Of a stretch of 64,000 nt of DNA, positions 43,092 through 60,512 are shown piece by piece (positions within the stretch are counted from its first letter, which is position 1; the number at the start of each line of letters is the position of its first letter). The stretch covers positions 37,968-101,967 of the forward strand of contig JAHBSW010000002.1 in the NCBI GenBank assembly GCA_019638935.1, given 5' to 3'. The notes beneath the pieces are model-generated. The model did not search any database. It had not been told where the DNA came from and saw only the letters and a list, made by a program, of their open reading frames with translations. Origin of the DNA: Cryobacterium sp. GTDB lineage: Bacteria > Actinomycetota > Actinomycetes > Actinomycetales > Microbacteriaceae. Position numbers and translations under genes: made by a program.

Positions 43092-43715
43092 GTGCGTGAG
43101 GACACCGAAGACACCGTCATTCGTGCGCGACACCCCTCCTCGCCGACCCCGGCGAGCGACGCGGATGCTCTCGCCGATACGGTGCTGAGGAAAAGCAGTG
43201 CTCCGCCACCGCTTGTGGAGCCGGTAGAGCCAGCCGATTCGGGGGACTGGAAGCGTGCGCTCACCGGGGATCTGACCGCCGACCTCCCGACGACTCAGCC
43301 GCACGCCGCGCCCTCCCGTCAGGCATCCGCCTCGCCGCCGAGCTCGGCACCGGCCGAACGATCGGTGCACAGCATCCGCGTGGGAGGCAGCGAGTTCTCG
43401 CTCGAGGCCCCCGCCTTCATCGGTCGTCACCCGAGCACCCCGCGCATCATGGGAACGAGACCGGTGCGCCTCGTGCGGGTTCCCTCGCCGAACCGCGAGA
43501 TCTCGTCGACTCACGTGTCGATCCAGCAGGAGGGATCCTCGGTCGTCGTGACCGATCTGGGGTCGACGAACGGCACGACGATCATCGGTTCCGGCCCGAC
43601 ACCGGTGCCGCTGCGTCGTGGCGATTCGATGGTCGTGCTGCCCGGTAGCCTCGTCGACCTGGGCGACTCCGTCGTCATCGAGGTACTCGCCGCGAAGTGG
43701 ACCGCGGATGACTGA
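43092..43715 (+). CDS. FHA domain-containing protein
   Basis: Disordered Pro/Ser/Ala-rich N-terminal half, then an FHA core FIGRHP...ISSTHVSI...TDLGSTNGTTI. Confidence 0.88.
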   Translation: MREDTEDTVIRARHPSSPTPASDADALADTVLRKSSAPPPLVEPVEPADSGDWKRALTGDLTADLPTTQPHAAPSRQASASPPSSAPAERSVHSIRVGGSEFSLEAPAFIGRHPSTPRIMGTRPVRLVRVPSPNREISSTHVSIQQEGSSVVVTDLGSTNGTTIIGSGPTPVPLRRGDSMVVLPGSLVDLGDSVVIEVLAAKWTADD

Positions 43716-44496
43716 GATCGGCACGTCGCAGGGCACCTATCGTGTCGCTGCGGGTGGGGCGGCGTCGCAGCCCGTGTTCGACATCCACTGGGGTGCCGTG
43801 ACCGACATCGGACACAAGCGCTCGCACAACGAGGACAGCTATCTCGCGGTTCCCCCGATCTTCGCCGTCGCCGACGGGATGGGCGGGCACAGCGCCGGCG
43901 ACGTCGCGAGCGATGCCGTGGTCTCCCGGTTGTCGGAGCTCGAGGGCGACGTTGTCGAACCCGCCGACATCGCGAAGGCCCTCGGTCGGGCGACAGTCGA
44001 CCTGACCTCGGCCATCGACGAAGCAGGTCTCGGCGTCGGCACGACGGTGACCGGTGCCGCCTTCACCATGGTGGACGACGCCGTCACCTGGGCGATCTTC
44101 AATATCGGCGATTCCCGGGTGTACCTTTTCGAGAAGTTCGCCCTCGAGCAGGTCACGCGCGACCATTCGGTCGTTCAGGAGCTCGTCAGCGCGGGCAGGC
44201 TCGATCCCCGAGACGCCGAGAACCACCCCGACGCCAACGTCATCACCCGAGCGGTGGGCTTCGGGGGTTCGCCGATTCTCGATGTCTGGCTTGTGCCGGT
44301 GCGACCCGGCACACGCCTGCTCGTGTGCTCTGACGGGCTCACACGGGAGCTCAGCGACCCGTATCTTCGCGACCTGCTCGCCGAGGGTCTCGGCCCCTTC
44401 GAAACGGCCGAACTGCTGCGCGATAAGGCGCTCGCTGCCGGTGGGAGGGACAACGTCACGGCCATCGTCGTCGATGTCGCCTCGGCGCCGGCGTAA
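43708..44496 (+). CDS. PP2C-family Ser/Thr protein phosphatase
   Basis: Motifs GHKRSHNEDSY, AVADGMGGHSAGDVAS, NIGDSRVY and GGRDNVTAIVVDV. ATG 43708 overlaps the FHA gene end by 8 nt. Confidence 0.9.
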   Translation: MTEIGTSQGTYRVAAGGAASQPVFDIHWGAVTDIGHKRSHNEDSYLAVPPIFAVADGMGGHSAGDVASDAVVSRLSELEGDVVEPADIAKALGRATVDLTSAIDEAGLGVGTTVTGAAFTMVDDAVTWAIFNIGDSRVYLFEKFALEQVTRDHSVVQELVSAGRLDPRDAENHPDANVITRAVGFGGSPILDVWLVPVRPGTRLLVCSDGLTRELSDPYLRDLLAEGLGPFETAELLRDKALAAGGRDNVTAIVVDVASAPA

Positions 44497-44620
44497 CCGG
44501 CACAGATCTGTGGACATTGTCAGGTGGTCAGCGCAGGTTGCCCGCTTACAATGAGACTTTCTGGCGGGGGTTGCCGTTCCGCGCCTAGTTCACGCACGAG
44601 GGGCAGGATGGGGAGAATCT

Positions 44621-46051
44621 ATGGCTCGTCGCTTACCGTCGACCCCGCCCGTGCTCCCGGGCTTCAGCCACGTGCACATTCTGGGCACGGGCGGGTTTGC
44701 CGACGTGTTCCTCTACGAGCAGAACATGCCTCGCCGACAGGTGGCTGTGAAAGTCATGCTCAGCGAGGTCGTCAACAACTCGGTGCGGCAGATGTTCCAG
44801 GCCGAGGCCAACCTCATGGCCAAGCTCTCGACCCATCCCTCGATCCTCACGGTCTACCAGGCCGGCGTCTCGGCCGACGGTCGCCCCTATCTCGTGATGG
44901 AACTCTGCTCGCCGTCGCTCAGCGAACGGTACCGCATCGAGCGCATTCCGGTTCCGGATGTTCTGCGCATCGCCATCCGCATCGGCAGCGCGATCGAGTC
45001 CGCGCACCGTGAGGGCGTCCTGCACCGCGATATCAAGCCGTCGAACATCCTCACGACGGCATATGGGCATCCTGTGCTCTCCGATTTCGGCATCGCCTCG
45101 ACCCTGAGCGATTCGGGTCAGCTCGACGCCATCGGGATGTCGATCCCGTGGTCGGCGCCCGAGGTGCTGCTCGACGAGACGGCGGGCACGGTCGCGAGCG
45201 AGGTGTGGTCGCTCGGTGCGACCGTCTACTCGCTGCTCGCGGGCCGCTCGCCGTTCGAGCTCACCGACGGCTCGAACCAGCCGGAGGACCTCATCGGTCG
45301 CATCGCCCGCGCGAAACCGCAACCGATCGGTCGCGACGACGTTCCCGCGAGCCTCGAGCGCCTGCTCGGCGAGGCGATGCAGCGCCGTCCGCACAATCGC
45401 CCCCACACGGTGCTGGAACTGGTTCGCGGATTCCAAGCGGTGGAGACCGAACTGGGTCTTCCCCAGACCCCGCTCGAGGTCGCGGTCGATGAGTGGGCAA
45501 CGGCGACGGTCGGCGACCTCGAGGAGCGCACCCGTGTGCGCGTGAACCACTCTCCGGCCGCTCCCCATTCGGCGCGTCAGCGTCGTCGGCTCGTGACCGA
45601 TACCGCGGGTGCGCCCGCGGGCATCGGCACGATTCACCGCGATGGCTCGGCGGGGTCAGCCGGTCTGAACACGAAGACCAGTCGACCGGGGTTCACGATG
45701 AACGCGTTCACCTGGACTCTCGTCATCAGCGCCGTGCTCGTGATCGCCCTCGGCACGATTTCGACGATCGTGCTGCTGCGTTCGCTCGCTGATCAGATAC
45801 CCCGGGTCACCGACATCGACGCGCGAGTGGTCGGAACGCAGGTCGAGTTCTCCTGGGAGGATCCCGGACTCGATCGCGGTGACTCCTATCAGGTGTCGAC
45901 CGACGACGGCTTCAACTCCAGCATTCAGTCGTCGCGCACGTTCACGGTCGCGGCCGCGGAGGGCGATCGCGTGTGCCTCACGGTGACCGTCAATCGCAAC
46001 GGGCAGACCGGCGAGCCGAGCAATCGCAAGTGCGTGGACGTCAACGGCTAG
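44621..46051 (+). CDS. Hanks-type Ser/Thr protein kinase with one TM helix and an Fn3-like extracellular domain
   Basis: Gly loop LGTGGFADVF, Lys VAVKVM, catalytic loop HRDIKPSNIL, SDFGIA, and PWSAPE in the APE position. TM helix FTWTLVISAVLVIALGTISTIVLL, then VEFSWEDPG...YQVS...CLTVTV. Confidence 0.9.
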   Translation: MARRLPSTPPVLPGFSHVHILGTGGFADVFLYEQNMPRRQVAVKVMLSEVVNNSVRQMFQAEANLMAKLSTHPSILTVYQAGVSADGRPYLVMELCSPSLSERYRIERIPVPDVLRIAIRIGSAIESAHREGVLHRDIKPSNILTTAYGHPVLSDFGIASTLSDSGQLDAIGMSIPWSAPEVLLDETAGTVASEVWSLGATVYSLLAGRSPFELTDGSNQPEDLIGRIARAKPQPIGRDDVPASLERLLGEAMQRRPHNRPHTVLELVRGFQAVETELGLPQTPLEVAVDEWATATVGDLEERTRVRVNHSPAAPHSARQRRRLVTDTAGAPAGIGTIHRDGSAGSAGLNTKTSRPGFTMNAFTWTLVISAVLVIALGTISTIVLLRSLADQIPRVTDIDARVVGTQVEFSWEDPGLDRGDSYQVSTDDGFNSSIQSSRTFTVAAAEGDRVCLTVTVNRNGQTGEPSNRKCVDVNG

Positions 46052-46060
46052 GTCACGAGC

Positions 46061-49000
46061 ATGATCATCAGTTGGATCTCCCGCAATCGGTCGGCGTTCG
46101 CGACCGCGATGAGCGGCACGGTGATCGCCGCTCTCGTCGCCACGCTGGCGATCGTGTCGGGCGGATACACGGCCCAGCAGGTCGAGCTCAGCGATGGGTC
46201 GGTGTGGGTCGCCAAGGGTGACGAGCAGCTCATCGGTCGCGCGAACGTCGACGTGCTCGAGCTCAACTCCGTCGTCGGTGCGGAGGGCACCGAGCTCGAG
46301 GTGGTGCAGCAGGGCGCGACGGTGCTGCTCATGGATCGCACGAACTCACGACTCGACGTCATCGATGCGGCGACCTCGACCGTCGTCGACGAAACGGCCA
46401 TGCCGACGGCGGCACCGCGCGTGTTCTTGGCGGGCGGCAATGCGGTCGTGACGGATGCCAACGGTCGAGTCTGGATTCTGCCCGCGGCCTCGCTCGGAGA
46501 GTTCGACCTCGACTCGCAGCCGGCGCTCAATCTCGGCGGGGATGCCGTCTACAGCATGGATTCGTCGGGGGTGCTCGCGGCGTACTCGCAGGTTGCGGGC
46601 GAGGTGTACCGCATCGATGCGGCCAATGGTGGACGAGTGCTCGCCTCGGTCGAGGCACCGTTCGGCGTTCCCGCGAGCGAGTTGCAGGTCGCCTGGGTCG
46701 GCGAGCACTGGGTGCTCTTCGACGCGGTGAACCACGACGCCCTCATCGACGGCCGTGAGGTCGACCTCACCGCACAGTTCACGCTCGCAGAACGTCCGAA
46801 GCTGCAGGCGTCAGCGGTGTCGGGAGATTCCGTGCTCATCTCATCCCCGCAGGGGCTTCTCGATCTGCCGCTCTCGGGTGGCGAACCGAGCGTCGTCGTC
46901 GGCGGACGAACCGGCTTCGCCGCCCAGCCGCTCGTCCTCGATGAGTGCCGCTTCGCGGCATGGAGCGATGGAACGCTGTGGCGGCAGTGCGCCGACCCCA
47001 CCGGCATCCAGTTCTCCCTCGAGGGCATGTCGCTCGGCGCTTCGCAGCTCGAGTTCGCCGTCAACGGCACTCGCGTCGTGCTCAATGACCCTCGCGGAGG
47101 AAGCACCTGGGCGGCGCAGCGCTCGGGTGAGCTGATCGACAACTGGGCCGACCTCGTCACTCTTCGCGAGGAGGAGCAAGCAGTCGTCGTGGACGACCCG
47201 AACGCCGACATCGAGTTCGAGCGCGCTCAGAAGCCCCCGGTGGCGGTGGACGACTCCTTCGGGGCGAGGCCCGGGCGCAGCTCCGTGCTGCCCGTGCTGC
47301 TCAATGACCACGACCCCAATGGTGACGTGCTCGTGGTGTCGCGCGTGAGTGCCATCGACGAGTCCCTCGGTCGCGTCGATCTCATCAACAACCGGCAACA
47401 GGTGCAGCTCACGCTGACCGACTCGGCAAGCGGAATCATCACGTTCGACTACTCCATCACCGACGGCCGGGGCGGGGAGGACTCGGCGATCGTCACGGTG
47501 ACCGTTCGCTCGCCCGACGAGAACTCGGCGCCCGAGCAGCGGTGGGCGAGCAGCACTCTCGTGGCGCAGGGTGGTCGCGTGACGACATCCGTTCTCGGCG
47601 ACTGGGTCGACCCAGACGGCGACACCATCTACCTCGCATCGGCGACGACCGCCGCGCCCGACCTGGTGAGCTACACGCCTGCGGGCATGGTGGTTTTCAC
47701 GGAGGGCGGTGCCACGGGTCAGACGCGGGGTGTCTCCCTCGTCGTGACGGATGGTCAAGCCGAGGGAGTGGGCTCGTTGAGCGTCACGGTCGAGCCCCCG
47801 GGCGAGGTGCCGATCATCGCCGAGAACTTCGTCGTTCTCGCCTACGCCGGCCAGGAGCTGCGCGTGGAGCCGCTCGGCCATGTGCGAGGCGGAACGGGAG
47901 AGATACGCCTGAGCTCGATCGCGCCCATCACCGGCGCAAGCGTCAGTGCGAACCTCGATGACGGCATTTTTCGCTTCATGAGCGAGACACCGAAAACGTA
48001 CCTGCTCGAGTACGTCGTCAACGATGGATCGCAGACCGCGGCAGGTATCGCGCGAATCGACGTCGCGGCTCCGCCGGATGCCAACTCCAAGCCCATCACC
48101 GTGCCCAAGACCGTGTTCGTGCAGACGCTCGGCTCGAACACCGTCGACATCGCCGCAAGCGACATCGACCCGAGCGGCGGGGTGCTGCTCGTCACCGGCG
48201 TATACAACGTGCCCGCTCGCTCCGGGGTTCAAGTGGAGCTCATCGAGCACCGCATCGCGCGGGTGACGCTCACTGCTCCTCTCGACGACGGTCCGGTTCT
48301 CTTCAACTACCGGGTCAGCAACGGGCTCGCCGAGGCGGAGGGCGAGGTCACGGTCATCGAGATCCCGCGCCCGACGCGGTTGCAGCCACCCGTGGCGATG
48401 CCCGATGCGATCTCGGTTCGGGTCGGGGCCGCGATCGACATCCCCGTGCTCGACAACGATGTTCACCCCGATGGCGAGGAACTCACCCTCGACCGCGACC
48501 TCGCCGTGCAGCTCGGCGACGACGGCGGTCTGCTGTTCAGCACGGGCCGCCTCCTGCGGTACCTCGCCCCCGATCGTCCGGGCGACTTCACCGCGACGTA
48601 CACCGTGCGCGGGCCGGACGGACAGGCGGCGAATGCGCGGGTCACCATCACCGTTCGAGAACGGGTGGAGGCGACCAACCGACCACCCGTGCCACGCATC
48701 ATCGTTGCGCGCGTACTCGCAGGCGAGTCGGTGACGATCCCGATTCCACTGAGCGGCATCGACCCGGACGGCGACACCGTGCAGTTGCTGGGGCAGGAGT
48801 CGAACCCCGAGAAGGGCTCGGTGACGTCAACGGGATCCGACAGTCTGACCTATCGCGCCGGCAGCTACTCCGCGGGCTCCGACGCTTTCTCGTACACGGT
48901 CATGGACGCCCTCGGTGCACGAGCGACAGGAATCGTTCGCGTGGGGATCAGCCCGCGGCTCGACGGAGCCCGCAATCCCGTCGCGACCCCCGACACGGTG

Positions 49001-51988
49001 TCCATCCGCCCGGGAGGGACCGTGACCGTGCAGGTGCTCTCGAACGACTCCGATCCCGACGGCAGTCCGCTGACGGTGACCGCCGTGGAACCCAGTGACG
49101 ACGAGGTGGAGGCGACGACGGATGGGCAGGTCGTCACGGTCACGCCCCCCGCTGTGCCCGGCAGCTACGGAGTCGTCTACACCATCCAGAACGCCGTGGG
49201 CGGCACGAGCTCTGCGTTCCTCACCGTCACGGTCGACCCCGATGCCCCGCGCGCGTATCCGATCATTCGCGACGCCGTGCTCAATCTCACCGACATCCTG
49301 GATCTCGACGAGGTCGACGTGAACGTGCTCGCGGGTGCGTTCTTCGCCGACGGTCCCGTGTCTGAACTGGGTGTCTCGCTCTTGCCCGGCTACGACGATG
49401 CGGCAACGGTGACGCCGACGAAACGCATTCGGGTGACGATCGGCGACCGCAGTCAGATCATTCCGTTCGCGGTGTCGCACCCCGACGACGCGGAGCTGCG
49501 CTCCTTCGCGTTCGTCTGGGTTCCGGGCTACGACGATGCCCTGCCGCAGATCAATCGCAGGGCGCCTGCGCTCACGATTCCCAGCGAGTCGACTCTCACG
49601 ATCGACCTGAAGCAGTACGTCGTCGCGATCGGCGGCGGACCGGTCTGGCTCACCGATACGTCGACCGTTCACGCGACGCACACCAATGGCGAGTCGCTCG
49701 TCGTCGACCGGCAGACACTGCGGTTCACCTCAGCGGACAAGTACTTCGGACCCGCCTCGATCTCGTTCGAGGTCACCGACGGCACGACGGCGGATGACCC
49801 CGACGGCAGGCGCGCGACGCTCGTGCTGCCCATCACCGTGACTCCGCGCGAGAACCAGCCGCCCATCTTCAACGGCGCGGTTCTCTCGTTCGAGCCCGCG
49901 GAAGAGCGCACCCTCAACCTGTTGAATCTCACGACCTACCCCTATGACGACGATCTCGACGAGCTCGCGTACACCGCGCTTGCTCCGCTTCCCGTCGGAT
50001 TCAGCTATTCGCTCACCGGCCAGCAGCTGACGATCCGGGCGAATGAGGATGCCGTCAAGGGCACCAAGACCGCTCTCGTGCTCGCCGTGCGCGACGATCT
50101 CGAGGAGGGCAAGGCGGGCCGCATCGAGCTCACGGTCGTCGCATCCAGCCGCCCGCTGGCGAGCCCCGCCCCGGATTCCTTCGTCGCCCCGCGCGGCGAG
50201 ACGACCGTCTTCGACGTGCTCGCCAACGATCAGGCGACGAACCCATTCCCCGGCTCGCCTCTCACGGTCGTCGATGTTCGCGGCGTCGGCGGCAGCGACC
50301 TGCCGCCGGGGGTGACGGTCGTGCCGAGCTCGGACAACCGCAGGCTCTCGGTGACGGTGTCGCCTGATGCCGCGCCGCAGGACATCAACCTGCAGTACCA
50401 GGTGCACGATGCGACGCGGGATCCCGACCGTGCCGTGTGGGGCAATGTGCGGGTGCAGATTCAGGACCGACCCGATCCGGTCACGGCGGCGCGCGTCACC
50501 GGATTCGGAGACAAGCGTCTCACGGTCGCGTGGAACCCTGGCGCCGCCAACAACTCGCCGATCACCGGCTACGAGGTGACCGCGACCCGTTCGGACACGG
50601 GTTCGGTCATCGGCGTCACGTCGTGCACGGTGACGAGCGGATGCGACATCCCGACCTCCGGCAATGGGCCGGCCAACGGCGTGCGTGTCGCGGTCTCCGC
50701 GATCAACTCGATCGGCAAGTCCGATGCCACGAACGTGCCGGGAGTCGCGTGGTCCGATGTCATCCCCGCCGCGGTCGGGGGAGTGAGCACGGTGGCCACC
50801 AACACGGCCCCCGCCGGAGGCTCGATCAGCGTGAGCTGGAACCCCGTTCCCGATCCGACACCCGGGTCCGCTCTCGTCGGCTACGTGGTGCGCATCACCG
50901 GGCCGAGCGTCGATCTCGCGATTTCGCGCGGTCCCTCGATCACGAGCCTCGACTACACCAACGCCGACGGAGTGCTCAAGCCGAACACGCAGTACTCGGT
51001 GACCGTCTACGCGAGGAACAGCGCGCAGGTAGCTTCGGAATCGGCGTGGCTTCGCAGCACACCGGTCGCGGTCACGCCCGTCGGTCCTCCCGGCGCGGTC
51101 GCGGGTGGTGTGTCGGGAGTGGTCGTCAACGCGCAGGGTCACGTGCAGATCAGCTGGGGGGCGGCAAGTCCCAATGGTGCATCGGGCGTGAGGTACTCCG
51201 TCGGCCGCTTTCTCGAGTCCGATGAACTGCCCACGACGTGTCAAGCGCCGAGCCCGGGTTCCGGAGGCAACGTCACGAGCCCCTGGGTCGATACCACCGT
51301 GGCCGATCAGGTGACCTACCGCTACGTCGTCTACGTCACCAACGTCGACAGCGCCGAGAACCCCTTCTATTGCACGCTCAATGCGTCAGGCCCGGTGCGC
51401 ACGATGCAGCCCCCGGGTCAAGCGAGCGGCAGCACGGCGATCGAGTTCCGCAATGGTCAGTTCGATGTGCGGGCGGGCACCGATCTCAGCGTCGCGACGC
51501 ACTCGGCCGAGAAGTTCCAGTTCTCGATCAACTCGGGGCCGTTCATCGACCTCCCCGCAGACCGTTGGCTCACGTCGATGGAGAACTCGGCGATGTACGG
51601 CAGCCTCATGACCGTTCAATACCGCGGATGTCGGGACGCGAGTGAGAATTTCTGCGGTGAGCCGTCGGCGATCGTGACGCTCCGGCCGGTCAACGCGCGG
51701 GCGACGATGGCCAGCTGCGTCGTGGGCGCGCAAGCGCTTGCAAGCCCCCCGGCCAACCCGGGCGGCTCGCCGACCGTGACCTTCCAGTACTCGTTCCACG
51801 ATGGCGGCGACACGTCCGACTGGACGGCCTTCTCGAGCGATGCGACCGTGCCGCCGCCCGCGGTCACCGATCCCGATGAAGCCGACGCGGTCGTGCGTGT
51901 TCGAGTGAAAGCCACCGTCGATTTCGGAGACGGCTCGCCGCGCACCGATGAGGCAAGTTCACCGGCTTTCGAGTGCAGTCCAGAATGA
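46061..51988 (+). CDS. giant (1975 aa) N-terminally anchored surface protein with tandem Ig/cadherin-like modules and fibronectin type III domains
   Basis: N-terminal signal-anchor AFATAMSGTVIAALVATLAIVSGG. About 11 modules of roughly 95 aa carry P-x-A-x-x-D...V-L-x-N-D-x-D-P-x-G-D-type motifs (for example VLLNDHDPNGDVL, VLDNDVHPDGEEL, VLSNDSDPDGSPL). About 3 Fn3 modules follow (LTVAWNPG...ITGYEV). No C-terminal LPXTG is visible. Confidence 0.85.
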   Translation: MIISWISRNRSAFATAMSGTVIAALVATLAIVSGGYTAQQVELSDGSVWVAKGDEQLIGRANVDVLELNSVVGAEGTELEVVQQGATVLLMDRTNSRLDVIDAATSTVVDETAMPTAAPRVFLAGGNAVVTDANGRVWILPAASLGEFDLDSQPALNLGGDAVYSMDSSGVLAAYSQVAGEVYRIDAANGGRVLASVEAPFGVPASELQVAWVGEHWVLFDAVNHDALIDGREVDLTAQFTLAERPKLQASAVSGDSVLISSPQGLLDLPLSGGEPSVVVGGRTGFAAQPLVLDECRFAAWSDGTLWRQCADPTGIQFSLEGMSLGASQLEFAVNGTRVVLNDPRGGSTWAAQRSGELIDNWADLVTLREEEQAVVVDDPNADIEFERAQKPPVAVDDSFGARPGRSSVLPVLLNDHDPNGDVLVVSRVSAIDESLGRVDLINNRQQVQLTLTDSASGIITFDYSITDGRGGEDSAIVTVTVRSPDENSAPEQRWASSTLVAQGGRVTTSVLGDWVDPDGDTIYLASATTAAPDLVSYTPAGMVVFTEGGATGQTRGVSLVVTDGQAEGVGSLSVTVEPPGEVPIIAENFVVLAYAGQELRVEPLGHVRGGTGEIRLSSIAPITGASVSANLDDGIFRFMSETPKTYLLEYVVNDGSQTAAGIARIDVAAPPDANSKPITVPKTVFVQTLGSNTVDIAASDIDPSGGVLLVTGVYNVPARSGVQVELIEHRIARVTLTAPLDDGPVLFNYRVSNGLAEAEGEVTVIEIPRPTRLQPPVAMPDAISVRVGAAIDIPVLDNDVHPDGEELTLDRDLAVQLGDDGGLLFSTGRLLRYLAPDRPGDFTATYTVRGPDGQAANARVTITVRERVEATNRPPVPRIIVARVLAGESVTIPIPLSGIDPDGDTVQLLGQESNPEKGSVTSTGSDSLTYRAGSYSAGSDAFSYTVMDALGARATGIVRVGISPRLDGARNPVATPDTVSIRPGGTVTVQVLSNDSDPDGSPLTVTAVEPSDDEVEATTDGQVVTVTPPAVPGSYGVVYTIQNAVGGTSSAFLTVTVDPDAPRAYPIIRDAVLNLTDILDLDEVDVNVLAGAFFADGPVSELGVSLLPGYDDAATVTPTKRIRVTIGDRSQIIPFAVSHPDDAELRSFAFVWVPGYDDALPQINRRAPALTIPSESTLTIDLKQYVVAIGGGPVWLTDTSTVHATHTNGESLVVDRQTLRFTSADKYFGPASISFEVTDGTTADDPDGRRATLVLPITVTPRENQPPIFNGAVLSFEPAEERTLNLLNLTTYPYDDDLDELAYTALAPLPVGFSYSLTGQQLTIRANEDAVKGTKTALVLAVRDDLEEGKAGRIELTVVASSRPLASPAPDSFVAPRGETTVFDVLANDQATNPFPGSPLTVVDVRGVGGSDLPPGVTVVPSSDNRRLSVTVSPDAAPQDINLQYQVHDATRDPDRAVWGNVRVQIQDRPDPVTAARVTGFGDKRLTVAWNPGAANNSPITGYEVTATRSDTGSVIGVTSCTVTSGCDIPTSGNGPANGVRVAVSAINSIGKSDATNVPGVAWSDVIPAAVGGVSTVATNTAPAGGSISVSWNPVPDPTPGSALVGYVVRITGPSVDLAISRGPSITSLDYTNADGVLKPNTQYSVTVYARNSAQVASESAWLRSTPVAVTPVGPPGAVAGGVSGVVVNAQGHVQISWGAASPNGASGVRYSVGRFLESDELPTTCQAPSPGSGGNVTSPWVDTTVADQVTYRYVVYVTNVDSAENPFYCTLNASGPVRTMQPPGQASGSTAIEFRNGQFDVRAGTDLSVATHSAEKFQFSINSGPFIDLPADRWLTSMENSAMYGSLMTVQYRGCRDASENFCGEPSAIVTLRPVNARATMASCVVGAQALASPPANPGGSPTVTFQYSFHDGGDTSDWTAFSSDATVPPPAVTDPDEADAVVRVRVKATVDFGDGSPRTDEASSPAFECSPE

Positions 51989-52032
51989 AACCACCCCTTC
52001 CGCCCACTCCCGCCAACCGGAAAGACCAGACG

Positions 52033-54416: not shown

Positions 54417-56737
54417 CCGAACGGCGCCCCCTCTCGATCGGCTTCGTGCTCGCCGCGGTGCTGCTTCTCTGGCTCGGCCTGGGCCTTTCCGCGGTCGCGT
54501 TCTGGCCGATCTTCGCCGCCGCGCAGTTCGCCGTGATGGCGGTCGCCGCCATTCTCGTCGGCACGGCAATCGGCGTGCTCGGTGCCCGCTATCGCTGGTC
54601 CAGCCTCGTCGTCGCGCTCGCCACGCTCATCGCGTTCACCGCGCTGGGTGTGCCGCTCGCCGTGCCCGCGAAGACCATCCTGGGCGTGCTCCCGAGCTTC
54701 GGCGGACTCGCCGATCTCTTCTCCGGGGTCGCTCTCGGCTGGAAGCAGCTGCTCACCATCGCCCTGCCCGTCGGTGACTACCAGGCACTGCTGGTTCCCC
54801 CCTTCGCGCTGATTCTCGTCGTCACCGTCATCGCGGTGACCATCGCGCTGCGCACGTCGTTCGGCGAGGTCGCGGCCGTCGGTCCCGTCATCGTCTTTCT
54901 CGTCGGGCTCGCGTTCGGTGCGGAGACGACGACGTGGCCGCTTCAACTGACGATCGCGCTCGCCGCGGCCATCATTCTCTATCTCATCTGGTGCCGCTGG
55001 TACCGTCGACGGGCATCCATTCGGATGCTTGCACGCAAGGCCGCCAGCGTTGACGCAGCGCCCCTCGAGACGGTTGCCGACGGTGGCTTCGTGGGCACGC
55101 GAACCCTGGTGAGCGCTGCGGTCGTGTTCACGATCGCGGCCGTGGCGGGAGTCGGCATGACCGCGCTGCTTCCGCCGTCGGGGGAGCGCGAGGTGCTGCG
55201 ATCGAGCACGGTGCAGCCCTTCGATCCGAGGCAGCACTCGAGCCCGCTGAGCGAGTTCCGCGCCTTCCTCAAAGAACCGCAGTCCGACCGCCTGCTGCTG
55301 ACCGTCGGCGGCCTCGAGCCCGGTGCGCGTGTGCGACTCGCGACTCTCGACTCCTACGACGGCATCGTCTACGCCGTCGACGGCGAGCGACAGGGCAGCA
55401 CCTCGGGAGTCTTCGCGCGAATCCCGTATCGCATCGACCAATCGGCGGTGCTGGGCGATGAGGTCGTCATCAACGTGAGCGTCGCCGGCTATTCGGGTGT
55501 GTGGCTGCCGACGATCGGCGAGCTGGTGAGCGTCGACTTCGGGGGGCCGCGCGCCGTCGAGCTCCGTGACGGCTTCTACTACAACGACGCTGGTTCGACG
55601 GGTGCCGTGCTGGCCCCGCTCGCCCCCGGCGACCAGTACCGGCTCACCGCCGTCATCCCGACCCCGCCCGCGGCGCTGTCCGTCGCGAGCCTCGAACCCA
55701 ACCCCGTGCCGCTCGCACCGCTGCCGGATCTGCCCGACGGGCTCGCCTCCACCCTGGACCGCTACGTGAGCGGCGTCGAGGGGGCAGGTGCGCGACTGCA
55801 GGCGATGCTCGACGGGCTGGCAGCGGAGGGCTATGTGAGCCACGGCATCTCCGAAGACGAACCGCCGAGTCGTTCGGGACACTCCAGCGAGCGCATCTCG
55901 GAACTCTTCACCGGCTTGCGGATGCTGGGCGACGCGGAGCAGTACGCGGTGGCGGCTGCCCTGATGGCGCGCGAGCTCGGCTTCCCGGCCCGGGTCGTCG
56001 TGGGCTTCGCGCCCGAGGTCGTCGAGGGGGTCACGACCGAGATCACGGGGAACGACATCTCCGCCTGGATCGAGGTCTCGACGAGTCGCTTCGGCTGGGT
56101 TGCCCTCGACCCGACGCCGCCCCTGCGCGAGATCCCGGATGAGGCGCCGCCGGAGCCCACCACCGTGACACAGCCGCAGACGCCCGTGCAACCGCCGGAG
56201 ATCGAGCCCGATGTGCGCGACGAGCAGGCGCCGCCCGAGGCGGTGCGAGACGAGCCGGAGGCGACGAACCCCTGGTTGCAGGTGCTCGCCCGAGTGCTCG
56301 CGGTGCTCGCGTGGCTCACGCTGGCGGTGGCGGTCGCTCTCGCCCCGTTTCTCACGATCGCGGCGGCGAAGTGGCGCCGGCGCCGACTGCGCCGCAGGGC
56401 CCCGACGCCGCTGGAGCGGATCACGGGCGGGTGGCAGGAGTTCCACGACGCAGCACTCGACCACGGCTACAGCCCCGGTGCCGTGCCGACCCGGCTGGAG
56501 GTGGCGCAAGCCGTCGGCGGAACACAGCCCTACGTGCTCGCCGCTGTCGTCGACCGTGTCGTCTTCGCGCCGGGTGAGCCGAAAGAGACCGAGGCCGATC
56601 AGCTGTGGCGCTCGATCGACGAACTGCGTTTCGGCCTCGGTGCCGATCGCACACGCTGGGAGCGCATCAAGGCTCTCGTCTCGCTGCGGTCGCTCGGTGG
56701 TTATAGTGTGACCAGGCTGTTCCGGCGGGAGGGGTGA
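54413..56737 (+). CDS. TgpA-like transglutaminase-fold membrane protein with substituted catalytic Cys and His; C-terminal TM plus DUF4129-like tail
   Basis: About 6 N-terminal TM helices. The core reads LGDAEQYAVAAALMARELGFPARVVVGF...NDISAWIEV...GWVALDPTP. ATGA overlap with the DUF58 stop. Confidence 0.82.
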   Translation: MTERRPLSIGFVLAAVLLLWLGLGLSAVAFWPIFAAAQFAVMAVAAILVGTAIGVLGARYRWSSLVVALATLIAFTALGVPLAVPAKTILGVLPSFGGLADLFSGVALGWKQLLTIALPVGDYQALLVPPFALILVVTVIAVTIALRTSFGEVAAVGPVIVFLVGLAFGAETTTWPLQLTIALAAAIILYLIWCRWYRRRASIRMLARKAASVDAAPLETVADGGFVGTRTLVSAAVVFTIAAVAGVGMTALLPPSGEREVLRSSTVQPFDPRQHSSPLSEFRAFLKEPQSDRLLLTVGGLEPGARVRLATLDSYDGIVYAVDGERQGSTSGVFARIPYRIDQSAVLGDEVVINVSVAGYSGVWLPTIGELVSVDFGGPRAVELRDGFYYNDAGSTGAVLAPLAPGDQYRLTAVIPTPPAALSVASLEPNPVPLAPLPDLPDGLASTLDRYVSGVEGAGARLQAMLDGLAAEGYVSHGISEDEPPSRSGHSSERISELFTGLRMLGDAEQYAVAAALMARELGFPARVVVGFAPEVVEGVTTEITGNDISAWIEVSTSRFGWVALDPTPPLREIPDEAPPEPTTVTQPQTPVQPPEIEPDVRDEQAPPEAVRDEPEATNPWLQVLARVLAVLAWLTLAVAVALAPFLTIAAAKWRRRRLRRRAPTPLERITGGWQEFHDAALDHGYSPGAVPTRLEVAQAVGGTQPYVLAAVVDRVVFAPGEPKETEADQLWRSIDELRFGLGADRTRWERIKALVSLRSLGGYSVTRLFRREG

Positions 56738-56741
56738 GGCC

Positions 56742-57470
56742 GTGAAGTGTCGCTACTGCGACTCCGCGCTACCCGAACGTGCACTCTTCTGCGGCGAGTG
56801 CGGGCGTCCGGTGACGGCAGCCCAGGGCGAGCCGTCGCGGCCCATCGTGGCGCGGCCGCTGACCGTCGCGGCCCCGACGCCCGAGCCCGGTCTCACCGTT
56901 TCGACGGGCTCTCTTCGCACCATTGCCGAGGCGTGCGAGCAGTGCGGCTCAGCGCTGGCGCCGACCGACATCTTCTGCGGCGAGTGCGGTGCGGTGTCGC
57001 GAGCGCGCGTTTCGACGCAGGGTGAGGGCGATTTCTCGTCCTCGCTGCCGGCGCCAGCGCCGACGCCCCTCTCGGCTGTCGGTCCGGAGGGTGGGAAGTC
57101 CGCTGGTCGAGTAGCGGCGCAGCCGCGTATCGAGACCCCCCCTCAACAGAGTTTCATCCTCCAGTTCAGCACGGGCGACAGCGTCACCGTGAGAGGCTCG
57201 GGGCTCATCGGTCGTCACCCCCGCCCGGAGCCCGGCGAGTTCTTCGACGAACTCGTCAGGGTGCACGACTCGACCCGGTCGGTCTCGAAGACGCACCTGG
57301 AGTTCGGCCAGGAGGGCGGCGAGTTCTGGATCAAGGACCGCTTCTCGGGCAACGGCACCGTGCTGCGCGGGCCTGACGCTCCCGTCGTGCAGCTCGTCGC
57401 GGATCGCCGCTATCGTGTGCCGCGCGGCTCGCGCGTCGACCTCGGTGACCAGTTCTTCGTGCTGAGCTAG
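56742..57470 (+). CDS. double zinc-ribbon plus FHA domain protein
   Basis: Zinc ribbons CRYCDSAL...FCGECG and CEQCGSAL...FCGECG, then an FHA core LIGRHP...SVSKTHLEF...DRFSGNGTVL. GTG start 4 nt after the upstream stop. Confidence 0.88.
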   Translation: MKCRYCDSALPERALFCGECGRPVTAAQGEPSRPIVARPLTVAAPTPEPGLTVSTGSLRTIAEACEQCGSALAPTDIFCGECGAVSRARVSTQGEGDFSSSLPAPAPTPLSAVGPEGGKSAGRVAAQPRIETPPQQSFILQFSTGDSVTVRGSGLIGRHPRPEPGEFFDELVRVHDSTRSVSKTHLEFGQEGGEFWIKDRFSGNGTVLRGPDAPVVQLVADRRYRVPRGSRVDLGDQFFVLS

Positions 57471-57602
57471 CCGCGCTCGAACCGAGAGTCTCGTGAATCG
57501 GAGGCACGCGGGTAGTCCTCTACAGCCGTGGCATCCGACGTGTACTCCCGGGGGGTCGACACGGCCTGAGCGGCGCACCGGGGTGCGGGTTTTACTGTCT
57601 GA

Positions 57603-60512
57603 GTGACCCGCCGCATCCGTGTGCCCGCACCACCACAGCCGCCCGAGAAGCCCCCGTTCCCGCTGCTGGCAAGCCTTGCACCGGTCGCCGGTGCGCTCGT
57701 GATGTGGGCGTTCACGCAGTCGCCCTTCGCCCTCGTGTTCGCCCTGCTCGGCCCGCTCGTCGCCGGGGGCGGACTCGTCGATTCCCGGCGACGCCGCACC
57801 AAGCAGGCGCGGCTCGCGCGTGAGCAGTACGCAGCATCGCTGCGGGCTGCGCGGCAGCGCATCGATGCCGCTCACGAGTCCGAACGCGCCGAGCTGCTGC
57901 GGGCAGTCGCGCCGGCCCTCGACCCGCTCACTCACGGTACCGTCACCCATGAGCGCTGGCGGCACGAGCCAGGAGGCCCGCTCACGGTCTCCCTCGGCAT
58001 CGGCTCGGTCGCCAGCGAGCTCAGCATCGAGGGCTCGGCAGAACTCGATGCCGGCGTGGGCGAGGAGCAGAGCGACCTCGCGATGCGGGCGGCGCAGCTC
58101 GACGACGCGCCGATTCTCGTCGACGCTCGCGCGGGCATCGGAATAGTCGGCCCTGCGCTGGCGACGCGGGCGCTCCTGCGTGCGATCGTCGTTCAGCTCG
58201 CGCACTCGCTGGCTCCGGATGCCGCCCGGCTCCACCCGAAGAACCTCACCGACGTGAGCGACCTCACCTGGCTTCTCGAACTGCCGCATGCGAGCACCGA
58301 CACCATGGCTGCCACCGCGCCCGGCGAGAGTTCGCACAGCGTCGCGCCCACGGTGACAACGGTGCACTTCACCGACCTCGACGGACACAGTCTCGCCCTC
58401 GTCGCGCTTGCCGCTCACGAACGTGATCTGCCGCGCGAGTGCCATACGATCGTCAGCGTGAGCGGGGTGCTCGCCGTCGTGGTTCGCTCACCCGTCGAGG
58501 GCTCATTCGCGACCCTGCTGCGACCCCATATGCTCTCCCTCGAGAGCGCGACCCAGCTCGCAGTCCGGCTGCGGCGGAGAGCGGTTGCCGATGGCCTGAC
58601 TCGGCGCGATTCGATTCCCGAGAGAGTGGCATTCGCGGACCTCGGCGAACAACCATCGCCTGCGCAGCCGACCTCGCTCGACTGCGTCTTCGCGCTCGGC
58701 AGCGCGAGCGAGCCCATCATGGTCGATCTCGTCGGCGACGGCCCGCACGCTCTCGTCGGTGGCACCACGGGCAGCGGCAAGAGCGAGCTACTGTGCGCGT
58801 GGGTGCTCGCCATGGCGGCCAATCGAACCCCGCGTGACCTCAACGTTCTACTCGTCGACTTCAAGGGCGGGGCATCGTTTCGGATCATCGAGTCGCTGCC
58901 GCACTGCGTGGGAACAGTGACCGATCTCGATCCCACCGAAGCCGAGCGCGCCCTCACGAGCCTGCGTGCCGAGTTGCGCTATCGCGAGAGGGTGCTCGCC
59001 GAGCACGGAGCGCGCGATGTGGCCGAAATCGAGCGGGGAGCGCTGGCGCGCCTCGTCATCGTCGTCGACGAGTATGCCGCCCTCGTCATCGAGCACCCCT
59101 CGCTGCACGCGGTGTTCGCCGACATCGCGGCGCGCGGGCGCTCCCTCGGCGTGCACCTCATCCTCTCGACCCAGCGCCCCGCCGGGGTCGTGCGCGATGC
59201 CGTCTTCGCCAACGCGCCGATTCGGGTGAGCCTGCGCGTGCTCGATTCGGCCGAGAGCACGGCCGTCATCGGAGTCGCCGATGCTGCCCGGCTCAGTCCC
59301 GAGCATCCCGGGCGTGCCCTCGTGTCGCTTGCGGGCAGCGCGCCCGTCGAGCTCCAGCCCGCTCTCGTCACGGCACAGGATGTCGCGGCCATCCGGTCTG
59401 CTGCCGCACAGACCCCGGGCGATGCCGGGTACGCTCCGCGTCGGCCGTGGCTGCCCTCGCTTCCTCTCAGCGTCACGCCTTCCGAGCTGGCGGAGTCGGA
59501 AGGCGAGGCGACCGGAATCCGCTTCGCCCTCGCCGATCGCCCCTTCGAGCAGCGTCGCGTCGCCGCCACCTACGACCCGCGAGTCCACGGTCACCTGCTC
59601 GTCATCGGGGCTAAGGGTTCGGGTCGAAGCACCGTGCTCGCCGCCCTCGCTGCGTCGGCCGCAGACTCCGGGCTCGCGGTCACCGCCGTTCCGAGCGACA
59701 TCGAGGGGGCGTGGGATGTCGCGCACGAGGTGCTCGAGGTCGTTCGCTCCGGCAATGGCGCTCCGCAACTGTGCCTGATCGACGACCTCGATGTCGTCGT
59801 CTCACGGTTGCCCGACGACTACCGCGACCTCTTCCTGGGCACGGTGGGCATCCTCCTGCACGAGGGACCCTTCGCCGGCGTGCACCTCGTCATCACGACC
59901 GCCCGGGTCGGCTCGGCGATCAGCGCCGTCGCTGCACTGTGCGAGTCGCGCCTCGTGCTGCGGATGCCCGATCGCCACGAGCACCACGTCGCCGGCGCAG
60001 ATCCCGCCCGGTTCACTGCCGAACTGCCGCCCGGTCGCGGCTGGTGGAGAGACGATCTCGTGCAGGTCGCTCAGGTCGAATCGTCGACGCCGATGCCTAC
60101 CCGAGCGGCAGCCGGGCTCGAACCGCTCGAGCGGCGCAGCATGCTTGTCGTCTCGTCTCGTGCGACCGAGTTGGCGGCGACACTCGACGCGGCGTGGGGG
60201 AGCGGCACGGTCGAGCTCCTCGGCTTTCGCGAGCCTTCTTCGCTCACCATCGGCGATCCCGGCGAGCCCACCCGCGTCCTCATCGCCGATCCCGAGACCT
60301 GGCAGGGTCGCTGGGCACAGTTCACAGAGCTCGGTCGTCATGTCCCCGTCGCATTTCATGAGTGCACGCCCGGTCAGTACCGGCAACTCTGCGGATCGCG
60401 GGCTCTGCCAGCCCCGCTCGCGCGGCCCGGCGACTCGGTCTGGCTCCTGCATCCCGGGGGACGGGTGACTCGCGCCCGGCTCCCGGCCCGTGGGCCCGAC
60501 CGGCCGCGCTGA
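57603..60512 (+). CDS. FtsK/SpoIIIE-family ATPase with EccC/EssC-like architecture
   Basis: Two N-terminal TM helices and a basic coiled segment. The canonical P-loop domain has VGGTTGSGKSELL, Walker B LVIVVDEYAAL and LILSTQRPAG. A second, degenerate domain has VIGAKGSGRSTVL and LCLIDDLDVV. Confidence 0.85.
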   Translation: MTRRIRVPAPPQPPEKPPFPLLASLAPVAGALVMWAFTQSPFALVFALLGPLVAGGGLVDSRRRRTKQARLAREQYAASLRAARQRIDAAHESERAELLRAVAPALDPLTHGTVTHERWRHEPGGPLTVSLGIGSVASELSIEGSAELDAGVGEEQSDLAMRAAQLDDAPILVDARAGIGIVGPALATRALLRAIVVQLAHSLAPDAARLHPKNLTDVSDLTWLLELPHASTDTMAATAPGESSHSVAPTVTTVHFTDLDGHSLALVALAAHERDLPRECHTIVSVSGVLAVVVRSPVEGSFATLLRPHMLSLESATQLAVRLRRRAVADGLTRRDSIPERVAFADLGEQPSPAQPTSLDCVFALGSASEPIMVDLVGDGPHALVGGTTGSGKSELLCAWVLAMAANRTPRDLNVLLVDFKGGASFRIIESLPHCVGTVTDLDPTEAERALTSLRAELRYRERVLAEHGARDVAEIERGALARLVIVVDEYAALVIEHPSLHAVFADIAARGRSLGVHLILSTQRPAGVVRDAVFANAPIRVSLRVLDSAESTAVIGVADAARLSPEHPGRALVSLAGSAPVELQPALVTAQDVAAIRSAAAQTPGDAGYAPRRPWLPSLPLSVTPSELAESEGEATGIRFALADRPFEQRRVAATYDPRVHGHLLVIGAKGSGRSTVLAALAASAADSGLAVTAVPSDIEGAWDVAHEVLEVVRSGNGAPQLCLIDDLDVVVSRLPDDYRDLFLGTVGILLHEGPFAGVHLVITTARVGSAISAVAALCESRLVLRMPDRHEHHVAGADPARFTAELPPGRGWWRDDLVQVAQVESSTPMPTRAAAGLEPLERRSMLVVSSRATELAATLDAAWGSGTVELLGFREPSSLTIGDPGEPTRVLIADPETWQGRWAQFTELGRHVPVAFHECTPGQYRQLCGSRALPAPLARPGDSVWLLHPGGRVTRARLPARGPDRPR

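Follow-up and report, generated by a model that had tools for sequence, protein, structure and literature searches.

We examined a block of nine genes (g1 to g9) at positions 43092-60512 of a 64,000-nucleotide window, the whole stretch of DNA analyzed here, from a metagenome-assembled genome of Cryobacterium sp. of the Microbacteriaceae. The block is likely a Microbacteriaceae member of an actinobacterial pathway of the Esr type, homologous to the bifidobacterial PFNA operon, and would serve surface sensing that is coupled to a Thr-phosphorylation relay. Esr stands for epibiont sensing and response, a pathway described for Schaalia odontolytica and other Actinomycetes (Wang...Mougous, bioRxiv 2026-09-09, PMC13622651). 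The block is not a new kind of system, as its architecture has already been described both as the PFNA operon and as the Esr pathway. A previous model-made annotation of this DNA (in the following: the sequence-only reading) had known of no experimental characterization of this gene combination, which has to be corrected, since its core corresponds to the PFNA operon, studied since 2018, and its whole to the Esr pathway. The nine open reading frames (ORFs) were verified and are co-directional and tightly packed:

g1, 43092..43715, + strand: FHA protein (Pfam FHA, 1.6e-7)
g2, 43708..44496, + strand: PP2C Ser/Thr phosphatase, EsrF/PrpC-like (Pfam PP2C_2 and PP2C)
g3, 44621..46051, + strand: Hanks-type Ser/Thr kinase, EsrE/Pkb2-like, with one transmembrane (TM) segment and an ectodomain of 85 amino acids (aa) (Pfam Pkinase, 6.7e-41)
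g4, 46061..51988, + strand: 1975-aa surface filament, EsrA/FN3-like (Pfam Big_9, Cadherin_4/5, fn3)
g5, 52033..53004, + strand: MoxR-type AAA+ ATPase (Pfam AAA_3, 1.4e-62; AAA_lid_2; bpMoxR)
g6, 53001..54416, + strand: DUF58 protein, MoxR partner (Pfam DUF58)
g7, 54413..56737, + strand: TgpA-like polytopic transglutaminase-fold protein, EsrD/TGM-like (Pfam TgpA_N and Transglut_core)
g8, 56742..57470, + strand: double zinc-ribbon FHA protein, zinc-finger EsrG variant (Pfam DZR, 1.1e-10; Zn_Ribbon_1; FHA, 2.4e-5)
g9, 57603..60512, + strand: 969-aa EccC/EssC-like FtsK-family ATPase (Pfam FtsK_SpoIIIE)

Profile hidden Markov model searches with the nine proteins bore out the expected families, namely FHA, PP2C, Pkinase, Big_9/Cadherin/fn3, MoxR, DUF58, TgpA/Transglut, DZR with FHA, and FtsK_SpoIIIE. 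At a threshold of E<=0.01, Pfam gave no fn3 match in the kinase ectodomain, which had previously been called Fn3-like, and no DUF4129 match in g7. Hydropathy analysis indicated one TM-like segment in the kinase, one at the N-terminus of g4, two in the DUF58 protein, about 7+1 in g7, and two at the N-terminus of the ATPase.

In the Esr pathway, the sensor EsrA combines a Sec signal, an N-terminal WD40-class β-propeller, and 14 immunoglobulin (Ig)-like repeats, and deletion of esrA abolishes signaling in Schaalia (PMC13622651). The other parts are a MoxR protein, a protein with a von Willebrand factor A (vWA) domain, the transglutaminase EsrD, the kinase EsrE, the phosphatase EsrF, and the FHA output protein EsrG (PMC13622651). 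EsrG occurs in 13 architectures that include zinc-finger types as a prominent class, and EsrG-EccC fusions are common (PMC13622651). The 3502 reported Esr loci belong mostly to Actinomycetales and Propionibacteriales, and 40% of them are adjacent to esx genes (PMC13622651). Bifidobacterium, PFNA, and Microbacteriaceae are not mentioned in the main text of the preprint. When we compared the block with this parts list, the kinase EsrE, the phosphatase EsrF, and the FHA output EsrG had their counterparts in g3, g2, and g1/g8, respectively; the MoxR protein and its vWA-domain partner are represented by g5 and, on the basis of a structural model, by g6. The membrane protein of the transglutaminase family in the cluster is g7, and catalytic residues are not among the features that the main text of the preprint lists for it.

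The giant protein g4 begins with a hydrophobic segment of the Sec type (residues 11-38) and has neither a C-terminal TM segment nor an LPXTG motif. The N-terminal signal-anchor is followed by a β-propeller-like domain of ~340 aa, by ~11 Ig/cadherin-like and ~3 FN3-like repeats that together make up ~14 β-sandwich units, and finally by a variable, Cys-containing C-terminal domain. When a profile of residues ~36-380 was compared with the PDB, nearly all matches were β-propellers, the best one being the designed Pizza6 protein (1.3e-5), and further matches included an S-layer YVTN propeller, sensor-kinase propellers, and virginiamycin lyase. Relatives of g4 gave weak Pfam matches to Beta_propel, NHL, and PQQ_2. 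With its Sec signal, its moderately secure β-propeller, its series of Ig repeats, and its lack of an LPXTG motif, the predicted architecture of g4 is that of an EsrA sensor, and g4 is most likely a sensor and not a cargo.

The phosphatase g2 scored 184 bits with the NCBIfam Stp1/IreP PP2C model, and its DGMGGH and RDNVT metal-binding motifs are present. In the kinase g3, the VAVK, HRDIKPSN, DFG, and APE motifs are intact, and its TM segment spans residues 357-391. Both FHA proteins, g1 and g8, contain disordered Thr-rich linkers, the linker of g8 being placed between its double zinc-ribbon and its C-terminal FHA domain. In an AlphaFold2 (AF2) model of g6 (pLDDT 75), a TM hairpin is combined with a β-sandwich of the CARDB type and, at the C-terminus, with a vWA-like α/β domain; Foldseek matched the model with CARDB (1.5e-5), and this last domain with von Willebrand factor A1 (7e-5, TMt 0.53).

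The transglutaminase-fold protein g7 differs from catalytically competent relatives, as it does not have the Cys-His-Asp triad of TgpA-type thiol enzymes. In an alignment with Pseudomonas aeruginosa TgpA (6g49), the catalytic Cys is replaced by Ala508 and the His by Ser550, and only Asp566 is kept (window 55934-56110). Among ~100 cassette homologues of g7, none had a Cys at the catalytic position. The triad positions are occupied by Ser-Thr-Tyr in Bifidobacterium, and in the two cassette types described below by (Ala/Gln/Glu)-(Ser/Thr)-Asp (type A) and Asp-His-Asp (type B). These exchanges make it unlikely that the protein works as a canonical transglutaminase or protease of the thiol type, and the retention of a sensor may be non-covalent or may involve another chemistry. 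Judged from these residues, g7 is probably non-catalytic as a thiol enzyme, and its transglutaminase-fold domain is predicted to be extracytoplasmic.

The core of the block turned out to be homologous to a bifidobacterial operon. The PFNA operon has the order pkb2-fn3-aaa-atp-duf58-tgm-prpC-hyp-fha (Nezametdinova/Danilenko 2018-2025; PMC8430577, PMC6803598); for B. longum GT15, its co-transcription and a phosphorylation of the MoxR protein by Pkb2 have been reported (PMC8430577). The genes g3 to g7 are collinear with this core, and tblastn gave identities of 27-56% and E-values of 1e-51 to 1e-156. The kinase g3 is 39-44% identical to Pkb2 over the kinase domain, g4 is 30% identical to the Bifidobacterium FN3 protein over ~1670 aa (E 1e-151), g5 is 56% identical to the PFNA AAA-ATP protein, and g7 is 27% identical to TGM over ~750 aa. 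With bifidobacterial DUF58 proteins, translated from duf58 genes in the supplementary alignment of the PFNA authors, g6 shares 34-38% identity over nearly the full length (E ~1e-64), and 28-38% when all tblastn comparisons are considered; they are as close to g6 as any other 50%-identity representative of this DUF58 subfamily. In two Bifidobacterium loci (L082, L083), a kinase of 473-475 aa is followed by a giant protein of 1981-1988 aa with Big_9, Cadherin, and fn3 matches and then by MoxR, DUF58, and TGM; the subsequent small genes include one for an FHA protein, and rpoC and rpoB come next. Neither locus has an FtsK-like gene. The homology and collinearity of g3 to g7 with the PFNA core show that this is the same cassette.

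This relation raises the question of whether the block could serve communication with an animal host, with the giant FN3 protein binding host cytokines and the kinase sensing host immune signals. An FN3 fragment of PFNA was indeed reported to bind TNF-α (PMC8430577, PMC10688814), and this finding, the reported phosphorylation of MoxR by Pkb2, and the fact that g3 to g7 are clearly homologous to the PFNA core and collinear with it speak for such a role. According to the describers of PFNA, orthologues do not exist outside bifidobacteria (PMC10688814). However, we found homologous cassettes in Microbacteriaceae, in Micrococcaceae, in genera of the Promicromonosporaceae/Cellulomonadaceae type, and in a metagenome-assembled genome (MAG) of the Propionibacteriaceae. 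This distribution across Micrococcales and Propionibacteriaceae contradicts the published uniqueness of PFNA to bifidobacteria, so that this claim fails while the homology holds. As the cassette is widespread in Micrococcales from soil, water, and cold environments and in Propionibacteriaceae, with no animal host, and as the bifidobacteria-only premise is contradicted, host communication is effectively refuted for this organism, and we give it next to no probability.

To define the conservation of the block, one genome per species was scanned with a majority-consensus DUF58 sequence, which yielded 80 loci, all of the Micrococcales type, and the gene content of the loci was determined by tblastn with the nine window proteins. 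Glaciihabitans sp. INWT7 has the identical nine-gene order. The order of the window, here called type A, was found in 31 loci, all from Microbacteriaceae, with g1 to g8 present in 31/31 and g9 in 23/31. In these loci, g1 always stands at the head, and g8 always lies between the genes for the TgpA-like protein and the ATPase. The protein identities are ~40-80%, yet the gene order is kept; the arrangement is therefore more than chance, and the earlier proposal that the nine genes form one co-conserved unit is supported by their recurrence in Glaciihabitans and in the type A loci, with the mentioned restriction for g9.

A second gene order, type B, was found in 42 Micrococcales loci from the genera Arthrobacter, Pseudarthrobacter, Citricoccus, Oerskovia, Isoptericola, Cellulosimicrobium, Luteimicrobium, Pengzhenrongella, Agreia, Subtercola, and Herbiconiux. 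It starts with the giant protein, MoxR, DUF58, the TgpA-like protein, a protein with zinc ribbon, RDD, and FHA domains, and PP2C, and it ends with a protein of ~650 aa with a C-terminal FHA domain, the kinase, a conserved 234-aa protein, and an FHA-bearing protein that runs into g9-like sequence. The type B counterpart of g8 thus carries an extra RDD membrane domain, and, as with g1 in type A, an FHA-bearing protein precedes the kinase. In metagenome loci centered on the 234-aa gene, which contain the terminal protein in full length, it has 1480-1495 aa with an FHA domain and three P-loop FtsK domains, and ligA is the next gene. Over the metagenome and Propionibacteriaceae loci, complete three-domain FHA-EccC proteins span 1482-1533 aa. 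The gene for this FHA-EccC protein directly follows the 234-aa gene in 37/50 informative loci. The presence of the same parts in two independent gene orders argues for functional coupling.

The ~234-aa cytoplasmic protein between the kinase and FHA-EccC (L055:19502-20206, L165:242-940, and homologues in L084-L163) belongs to no Pfam family and has no counterpart in the window. With 60-98% identity, it is the most conserved type B gene, and on visual inspection its N-terminal part resembles an FHA domain.

Additional arrangements were seen in two other loci. In the Propionibacteriaceae MAG, the last gene of the type B set encodes an FHA-FtsK protein of 1533 aa. In this cassette (L164, 7036-21467), no giant gene is present upstream of MoxR, and a 528-aa protein of no known family is encoded there instead; its gene adjoins rpsF, ssb, rpsR, and rplI. 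Another protein may stand in for the sensor here, or the sensor gene may lie at a different site. In a JGI metagenome contig (L165), the order is FHA, a 232-aa protein, kinase, giant protein, MoxR, DUF58, TgpA, FHA, and a 1488-aa FHA-EccC. The genes that follow FHA-EccC in this contig (L165:14443-21197) code for two ~90-aa W-x-G proteins (WVG; likely WXG100) and for a 353-aa protein that carries a WLG motif in its N-terminal part and is rich in Gly in its C-terminal part. Together with the next small ORF, they look like Esx-type substrates, an LXG-type toxin, and its immunity gene in cis.

Three loci of our collection contain Micrococcales-like cassette fragments in assemblies with other labels, namely Vibrio cholerae (L036, a 4.3-kb contig), a Synechococcus sp. 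MAG (L027), and Sphaerisporangium cinnabarinum (L062, a 5-kb contig). These are probably due to contamination or mis-binning.

The last gene of the block, g9, required special attention, as its Pfam domain FtsK_SpoIIIE and the annotation of homologues as "DNA segregation ATPase" could suggest a DNA translocase of the FtsK/SpoIIIE/TraB type that functions in conjugation or segregation and is adjacent to the cassette by chance. The NCBIfam scores point in another direction, with 258 bits for EssC and 228 bits for EccCa as compared to 62 bits for FtsK and 32 bits for TraB. All these scores are below the curated cut-offs (258 vs 778 for EssC, 228 vs 509 for EccCa). The best PDB sequence match is the EccC of Thermomonospora curvata (4nh0, 1e-49), followed by YukB/EssC and EccC5, whereas FtsK matched with only ~1e-21. 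Moreover, the layout of two TM segments, a DUF-like region, and tandem P-loop domains is collinear with the FHA-EccC fusions, the adjacency to the cassette is kept across genera, and no conjugation genes were found nearby. On the basis of the scores and the PDB matches, we rejected a role in DNA translocation or conjugation, which is extremely improbable, and the EccC/EssC-like label given to this ATPase by the sequence-only reading is well founded.

On the same sequence comparisons, g9 is a shortened EccC relative that is closer to EccC/EssC than to DNA translocases. Its two TM segments and DUF-like region are followed by an intact first P-loop domain (D1) and a degenerate second one (D2), and a third domain (D3) is missing. 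From its TM segments through the DUF region to D1, g9 can be aligned collinearly with a 1482-aa type B FHA-EccC. The Walker A motif is GTTGSGKS in D1, where its Lys is kept in 120/120 g9 homologues, and GAKGSGRS, with an exchange of Lys to Arg, in the second domain. Residues 600-969 showed a weak match to D2 of EccC5 (1.8e-5). The canonical EccC/EssC architecture, which comprises two TM segments, the DUF region, and three FtsK-like domains in ~1300-1500 aa and scores above the cut-offs, is not found in g9. Among the scanned ORFs of the 64-kb window, there were no genes for EccB, EccD, MycP, EssA/B, or WXG100 proteins, and no genes for EsaA, EssA, EssB, or WXG100 proteins were found near the block.

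In eight type A loci that lack g9, seven from Leifsonia (L010, L016, L017, L026, L033, L046, L061) and one from Frigoribacterium (L071), g1 to g8 are kept and no g9-like gene is present within ~6-7.7 kb downstream of g8, so that the gene has apparently been lost or moved.

These data on g9 bear on the initial model for the block, according to which the EccC-like ATPase, together with MoxR, DUF58, and TgpA, exports or assembles the 1975-aa protein as its cargo under the control of Thr phosphorylation. In agreement with this model, the giant gene and the ATPase gene are co-conserved in 23/31 loci of the same order, and the ATPase resembles that of type VII secretion systems (T7SS). MoxR/vWA pairs are known maturation chaperones. 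A surface-assembly role of the TgpA-like protein is also real to some extent, as loss of EsrD releases EsrA in Schaalia (PMC13622651). Nevertheless, g4 itself starts with a hydrophobic segment of the Sec type, cassettes without the ATPase (Leifsonia, Frigoribacterium, Bifidobacterium) keep the giant protein, the Propionibacteriaceae cassette keeps FHA-EccC with no giant gene upstream, and the Esx-type substrates encoded in cis are small WXG-motif proteins. The substrates known for T7SS are small, helical proteins of the WXG/LXG kind that lack a Sec signal. The abolished signaling of the esrA deletion strain of Schaalia likewise identifies the EsrA protein as a sensor. We therefore regard the cargo model as improbable. 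The idea that the giant protein is cargo or product thus gave way to an EsrA-like sensor with its own Sec-type segment and propeller/Ig layout, and a complete export device is not supported, as no other esx genes were found in the window and the ATPase is shortened relative to EccC. What stands from the proposed phospho-gated export is the link of FHA proteins to an EccC-type ATPase, by analogy to esx-linked Esr2 and to the type B FHA-EccC fusions.

As a more speculative possibility, to which we attach a rather low probability, the type A protein with its two P-loop domains could be a stand-alone, FHA-gated membrane ATPase outside a canonical Esx system that acts directly together with the catalytically dead, polytopic TgpA-like protein and MoxR/DUF58, for example by moving or remodeling a component of the sensor complex. 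This idea derives from the missing substrate-binding domain D3, from the absence of an FHA domain in g9 itself, and from the absence of esx neighbors. If true, the T7SS motor would be used here in a new and minimal way, and the Bifidobacterium PFNA operon, long seen as a sensor of host cytokines, would be a threat sensor of the Esr type.

We compared evolutionary rates as mean identities to the window proteins in 22 type A loci. No gene of the block is better conserved than that for MoxR (g5), with 82%; the kinase domain of g3 follows in this comparison with 77%. Within g4, the Ig stalk reached 62%, whereas the β-propeller and the FN3 region reached only 44% and 42%. The tip of g4 had a mean identity of 42-44%, and its C-terminal part was detectable in 6/22 loci. 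Outside D1, g9 showed 34-36%. The faster divergence of propeller and tip relative to the Ig stalk fits a sensor under diversifying pressure.

In principle, the block could also be a housekeeping device for envelope surveillance or surface maintenance that senses wall or surface stress, or mediates adhesion or aggregation, and adjusts envelope biogenesis, with neither inter-bacterial conflict nor a secretion output. The locus lies in the core chromosome among rho, prfA, and the atp operon and has no GC anomaly, g9 is degenerate and sometimes absent, and PADLOC detected generic kinase and P-loop domain matches and no system, all of which would be in line with such a function. MoxR-DUF58-TgpA triads are widespread outside conflict contexts, as in the case of P. 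aeruginosa TgpA. On the other hand, the sensor tip and the propeller diverge fast, sister cassettes are directly tied to FHA-EccC and to WXG/LXG-like genes, and the genetics of Schaalia show that Esr is activated specifically by epibionts (PMC13622651). We thus consider a pure envelope function unlikely and favor the assignment to an Esr-type sensing pathway.

Several aspects weigh against this assignment. Membership in the Esr pathway is based on architecture, taxonomic range, and the homology to PFNA and the sister loci, and not on direct orthology to Esr1 or Esr2, and the work on Esr is a single unreviewed preprint (PMC13622651). The functional roles given here for the proteins of this organism are all predictions. 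The β-propeller of g4 was called from a weak profile match, which makes it moderately secure, and AF2 modeling of residues 1-400 from the single sequence gave no usable structure (pLDDT 38). The missing Cys and His of g7 conflict with the idea of covalent anchoring. In addition, the ATPase lacks a third domain and has a degenerate second one, its gene is absent from 8/31 loci of the same order, indicating that it is dispensable for the cassette, and partner esx genes were not found in the window. As g9 is truncated, sometimes absent, and without esx partners, a secretion or export output of this particular block can only be inferred.

With the Esr-type assignment, the following sequence of events can be proposed. 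The giant protein g4 would be exported by the Sec system and would stay at the cell as a long surface Ig filament, with its propeller close to the membrane and a variable tip, and would act as a sensor, as suggested by its architecture and by EsrA genetics. It would be held or organized at the surface by g7, a role known only from EsrD of Schaalia and probably non-catalytic here. The surface module may then be coupled to the cytoplasm by g5 and the membrane-tethered, vWA-like g6. Activated g3 would phosphorylate Thr residues in the disordered regions of g1 and g8, and g2 would reset the system. In Schaalia, EsrG Thr152 is phosphorylated upon infection by Saccharibacteria in an EsrA-dependent manner, and a T152A exchange blunts the response; this evidence for EsrG1 comes from phosphoproteomics and from the T152A mutant (PMC13622651). 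Finally, g8, which is encoded beside g9, could modulate the EccC-like ATPase, comparable to the sister FHA-EccC fusions and to the control of Esx by Esr2, which determines at the post-translational level how some of the Esx substrates are secreted (PMC13622651). The FHA outputs may also alter transcription. As for the signal, our leading guess is a colonizing epibiont (Patescibacteria) or another surface-contact threat.

The placement of the block joins two literatures, PFNA and Esr, that do not cite each other in the portions of text considered here. The cassette is ancient, widespread in Micrococcales, and present in Propionibacteriaceae, which undermines a bifidobacteria-specific reading of PFNA in terms of host cytokines. 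Environmental, free-living Microbacteriaceae carry an Esr-type pathway, and if the Esr model is true, such bacteria also face epibionts or other surface-contact threats and would be candidate hosts for the cultivation of environmental Patescibacteria. Two mechanistic questions are not treated in the main text of the Esr preprint: the missing nucleophile in every examined "transglutaminase" homologue, which also concerns the covalent-anchoring idea of that study, and the truncated orphan EccC of this lineage. Useful outcomes of our analysis are the unification of PFNA and Esr, the wider range of the cassette, which is not confined to bifidobacteria, the absence of catalytic residues from the transglutaminase-fold protein, and the finding of a shortened, orphan EccC.

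The organization and the surroundings of the block were also analyzed. Its genes, coordinates, and junctions are exactly as the sequence-only reading had described them. The stop of g1 and the start of g2 overlap by 8 nucleotides (nt) (43708/43715), g5/g6 and g6/g7 share the junction codons GTGA (53001-53004) and ATGA (54413-54416), respectively, g7 and g8 are separated by 4 nt (56737/56742), and the remaining intergenic gaps are 124, 9, 44, and 132 nt long. The 44-nt gap presupposes that MoxR starts at ATG 52033, in agreement with the 323-aa annotation of the orthologue; the longest MoxR ORF begins with GTG 51973 within the end of g4, and the orthologue annotation favors the shorter form. The DUF58 protein is annotated by NCBI with 436 aa, and most homologues have 470-472 aa, which supports the start of g6 at GTG 53001.

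Upstream of the block are genes for an aldehyde dehydrogenase, an AsnC regulator, and an aminotransferase, and downstream are those of an ABC importer. As these flanking genes belong to unrelated metabolism and transport, the boundaries that had been assigned to the block are right. Other genes of the window are housekeeping genes (thr genes, rho, prfA, sua5, atp operon), and the guanine-cytosine (GC) content is even. We rejected a mobile island because of the uniform GC content, the housekeeping surroundings, and the presence of the same downstream ABC transporter in Glaciihabitans. A known anti-phage system was rejected as well, as the PADLOC matches were limited to generic domains of kinases (mad6, PD-T4-6) and P-loop proteins (mad8, SspH, HerA), with none at the level of a system. 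An Rfam scan of the window had no match.

Counts of promoter and terminator motifs were not above those of shuffled sequences and do not bear on whether the genes form a single operon. In the g2-g3 gap, a match to a σ70-like promoter (TGGTCA-16-TACAAT, window 44525-44552) and a weak hairpin with a T-run (window 57574-57597) in the g8-g9 gap were within chance expectation; the position of the former recalls the PFNA transcription start, which was mapped just upstream of pkb2. Two ORFs elsewhere in the window with coding-like GC content at the third codon position have no Pfam family at E<=1e-5, namely 18924-20369 (+ strand, 481 aa), which follows an ArsP_1 permease/DUF1980 pair, and 2461-3276 (+ strand, 271 aa).

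A comparison with known systems places the block more precisely. With the PpkA/PppA/Fha1 triad of the H1 type VI secretion system (T6SS), it shares a membrane-bound Hanks kinase, a PP2C phosphatase, and an FHA protein, which in that system gate an ATPase-dependent secretion machine post-translationally. This is an analogy only, as the TagH/Fha model TIGR03354 scored 23 bits against a cut-off of 120 and no T6SS genes were found in the window. P. aeruginosa TgpA (PA2873) is part of a MoxR-DUF58-TgpA triad and combines a polytopic TgpA_N domain with a transglutaminase core fold as g7 does, but it keeps Cys-His-Asp (6g49) where g7 has Ala-Ser-Asp, and it has no giant Ig, kinase, FHA, or EccC partners. 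Firmicute T7SSb systems contain EssC with N-terminal FHA domains and the pseudokinase membrane protein EssB/YukC. The common elements are a tandem-P-loop FtsK-family ATPase, FHA domains, and a single-pass membrane protein with a kinase fold, and type B cassettes even fuse FHA to a three-domain EccC. In the window, however, FHA is on the separate g8, the kinase is apparently catalytically intact, and the ATPase has two and not three P-loop domains. The MoxR-vWA ternary conflict systems (Kaur, Burroughs, Iyer, Aravind 2020, PMC7159879) likewise combine MoxR and vWA proteins with a sensor that can be a β-propeller, and sometimes with kinase or FHA domains. They are defined by effector-bearing vWA proteins (VMAPs) and polymorphic toxin contexts and do not include DUF58/TgpA cassettes (PMC7159879), and we therefore rejected them as a related but different class.

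The PFNA operon and the Esr pathway are the closest relatives. With PFNA, the block shares five homologous core genes whose order is identical and whose sizes differ little (476 vs 473 aa for the kinase, 1975 vs 1981 aa for the giant protein), and genes for PP2C-like and FHA proteins are present in both. In Bifidobacterium, the PP2C and FHA genes follow tgm, and there is neither a zinc-ribbon FHA gene nor an FtsK/EccC-like gene. In comparison to Esr, the block of the window opens with FHA and PP2C genes and has two separate FHA proteins in place of the EsrG1 arrangement of pseudophosphatase, intrinsically disordered region, and FHA domain. Its EccC-like protein has 969 aa with a degenerate D2 and no D3, with no other esx genes found in the 64 kb, its transglutaminase-fold protein lacks the catalytic Cys and His, and its host is an environmental Cryobacterium and not an oral Actinomycete. 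Common to both are the parts list, which includes the zinc-finger type of FHA output, a neighboring gene for an EccC-type ATPase, and the distribution among taxa, which in terms of GTDB is that of the Actinomycetales.

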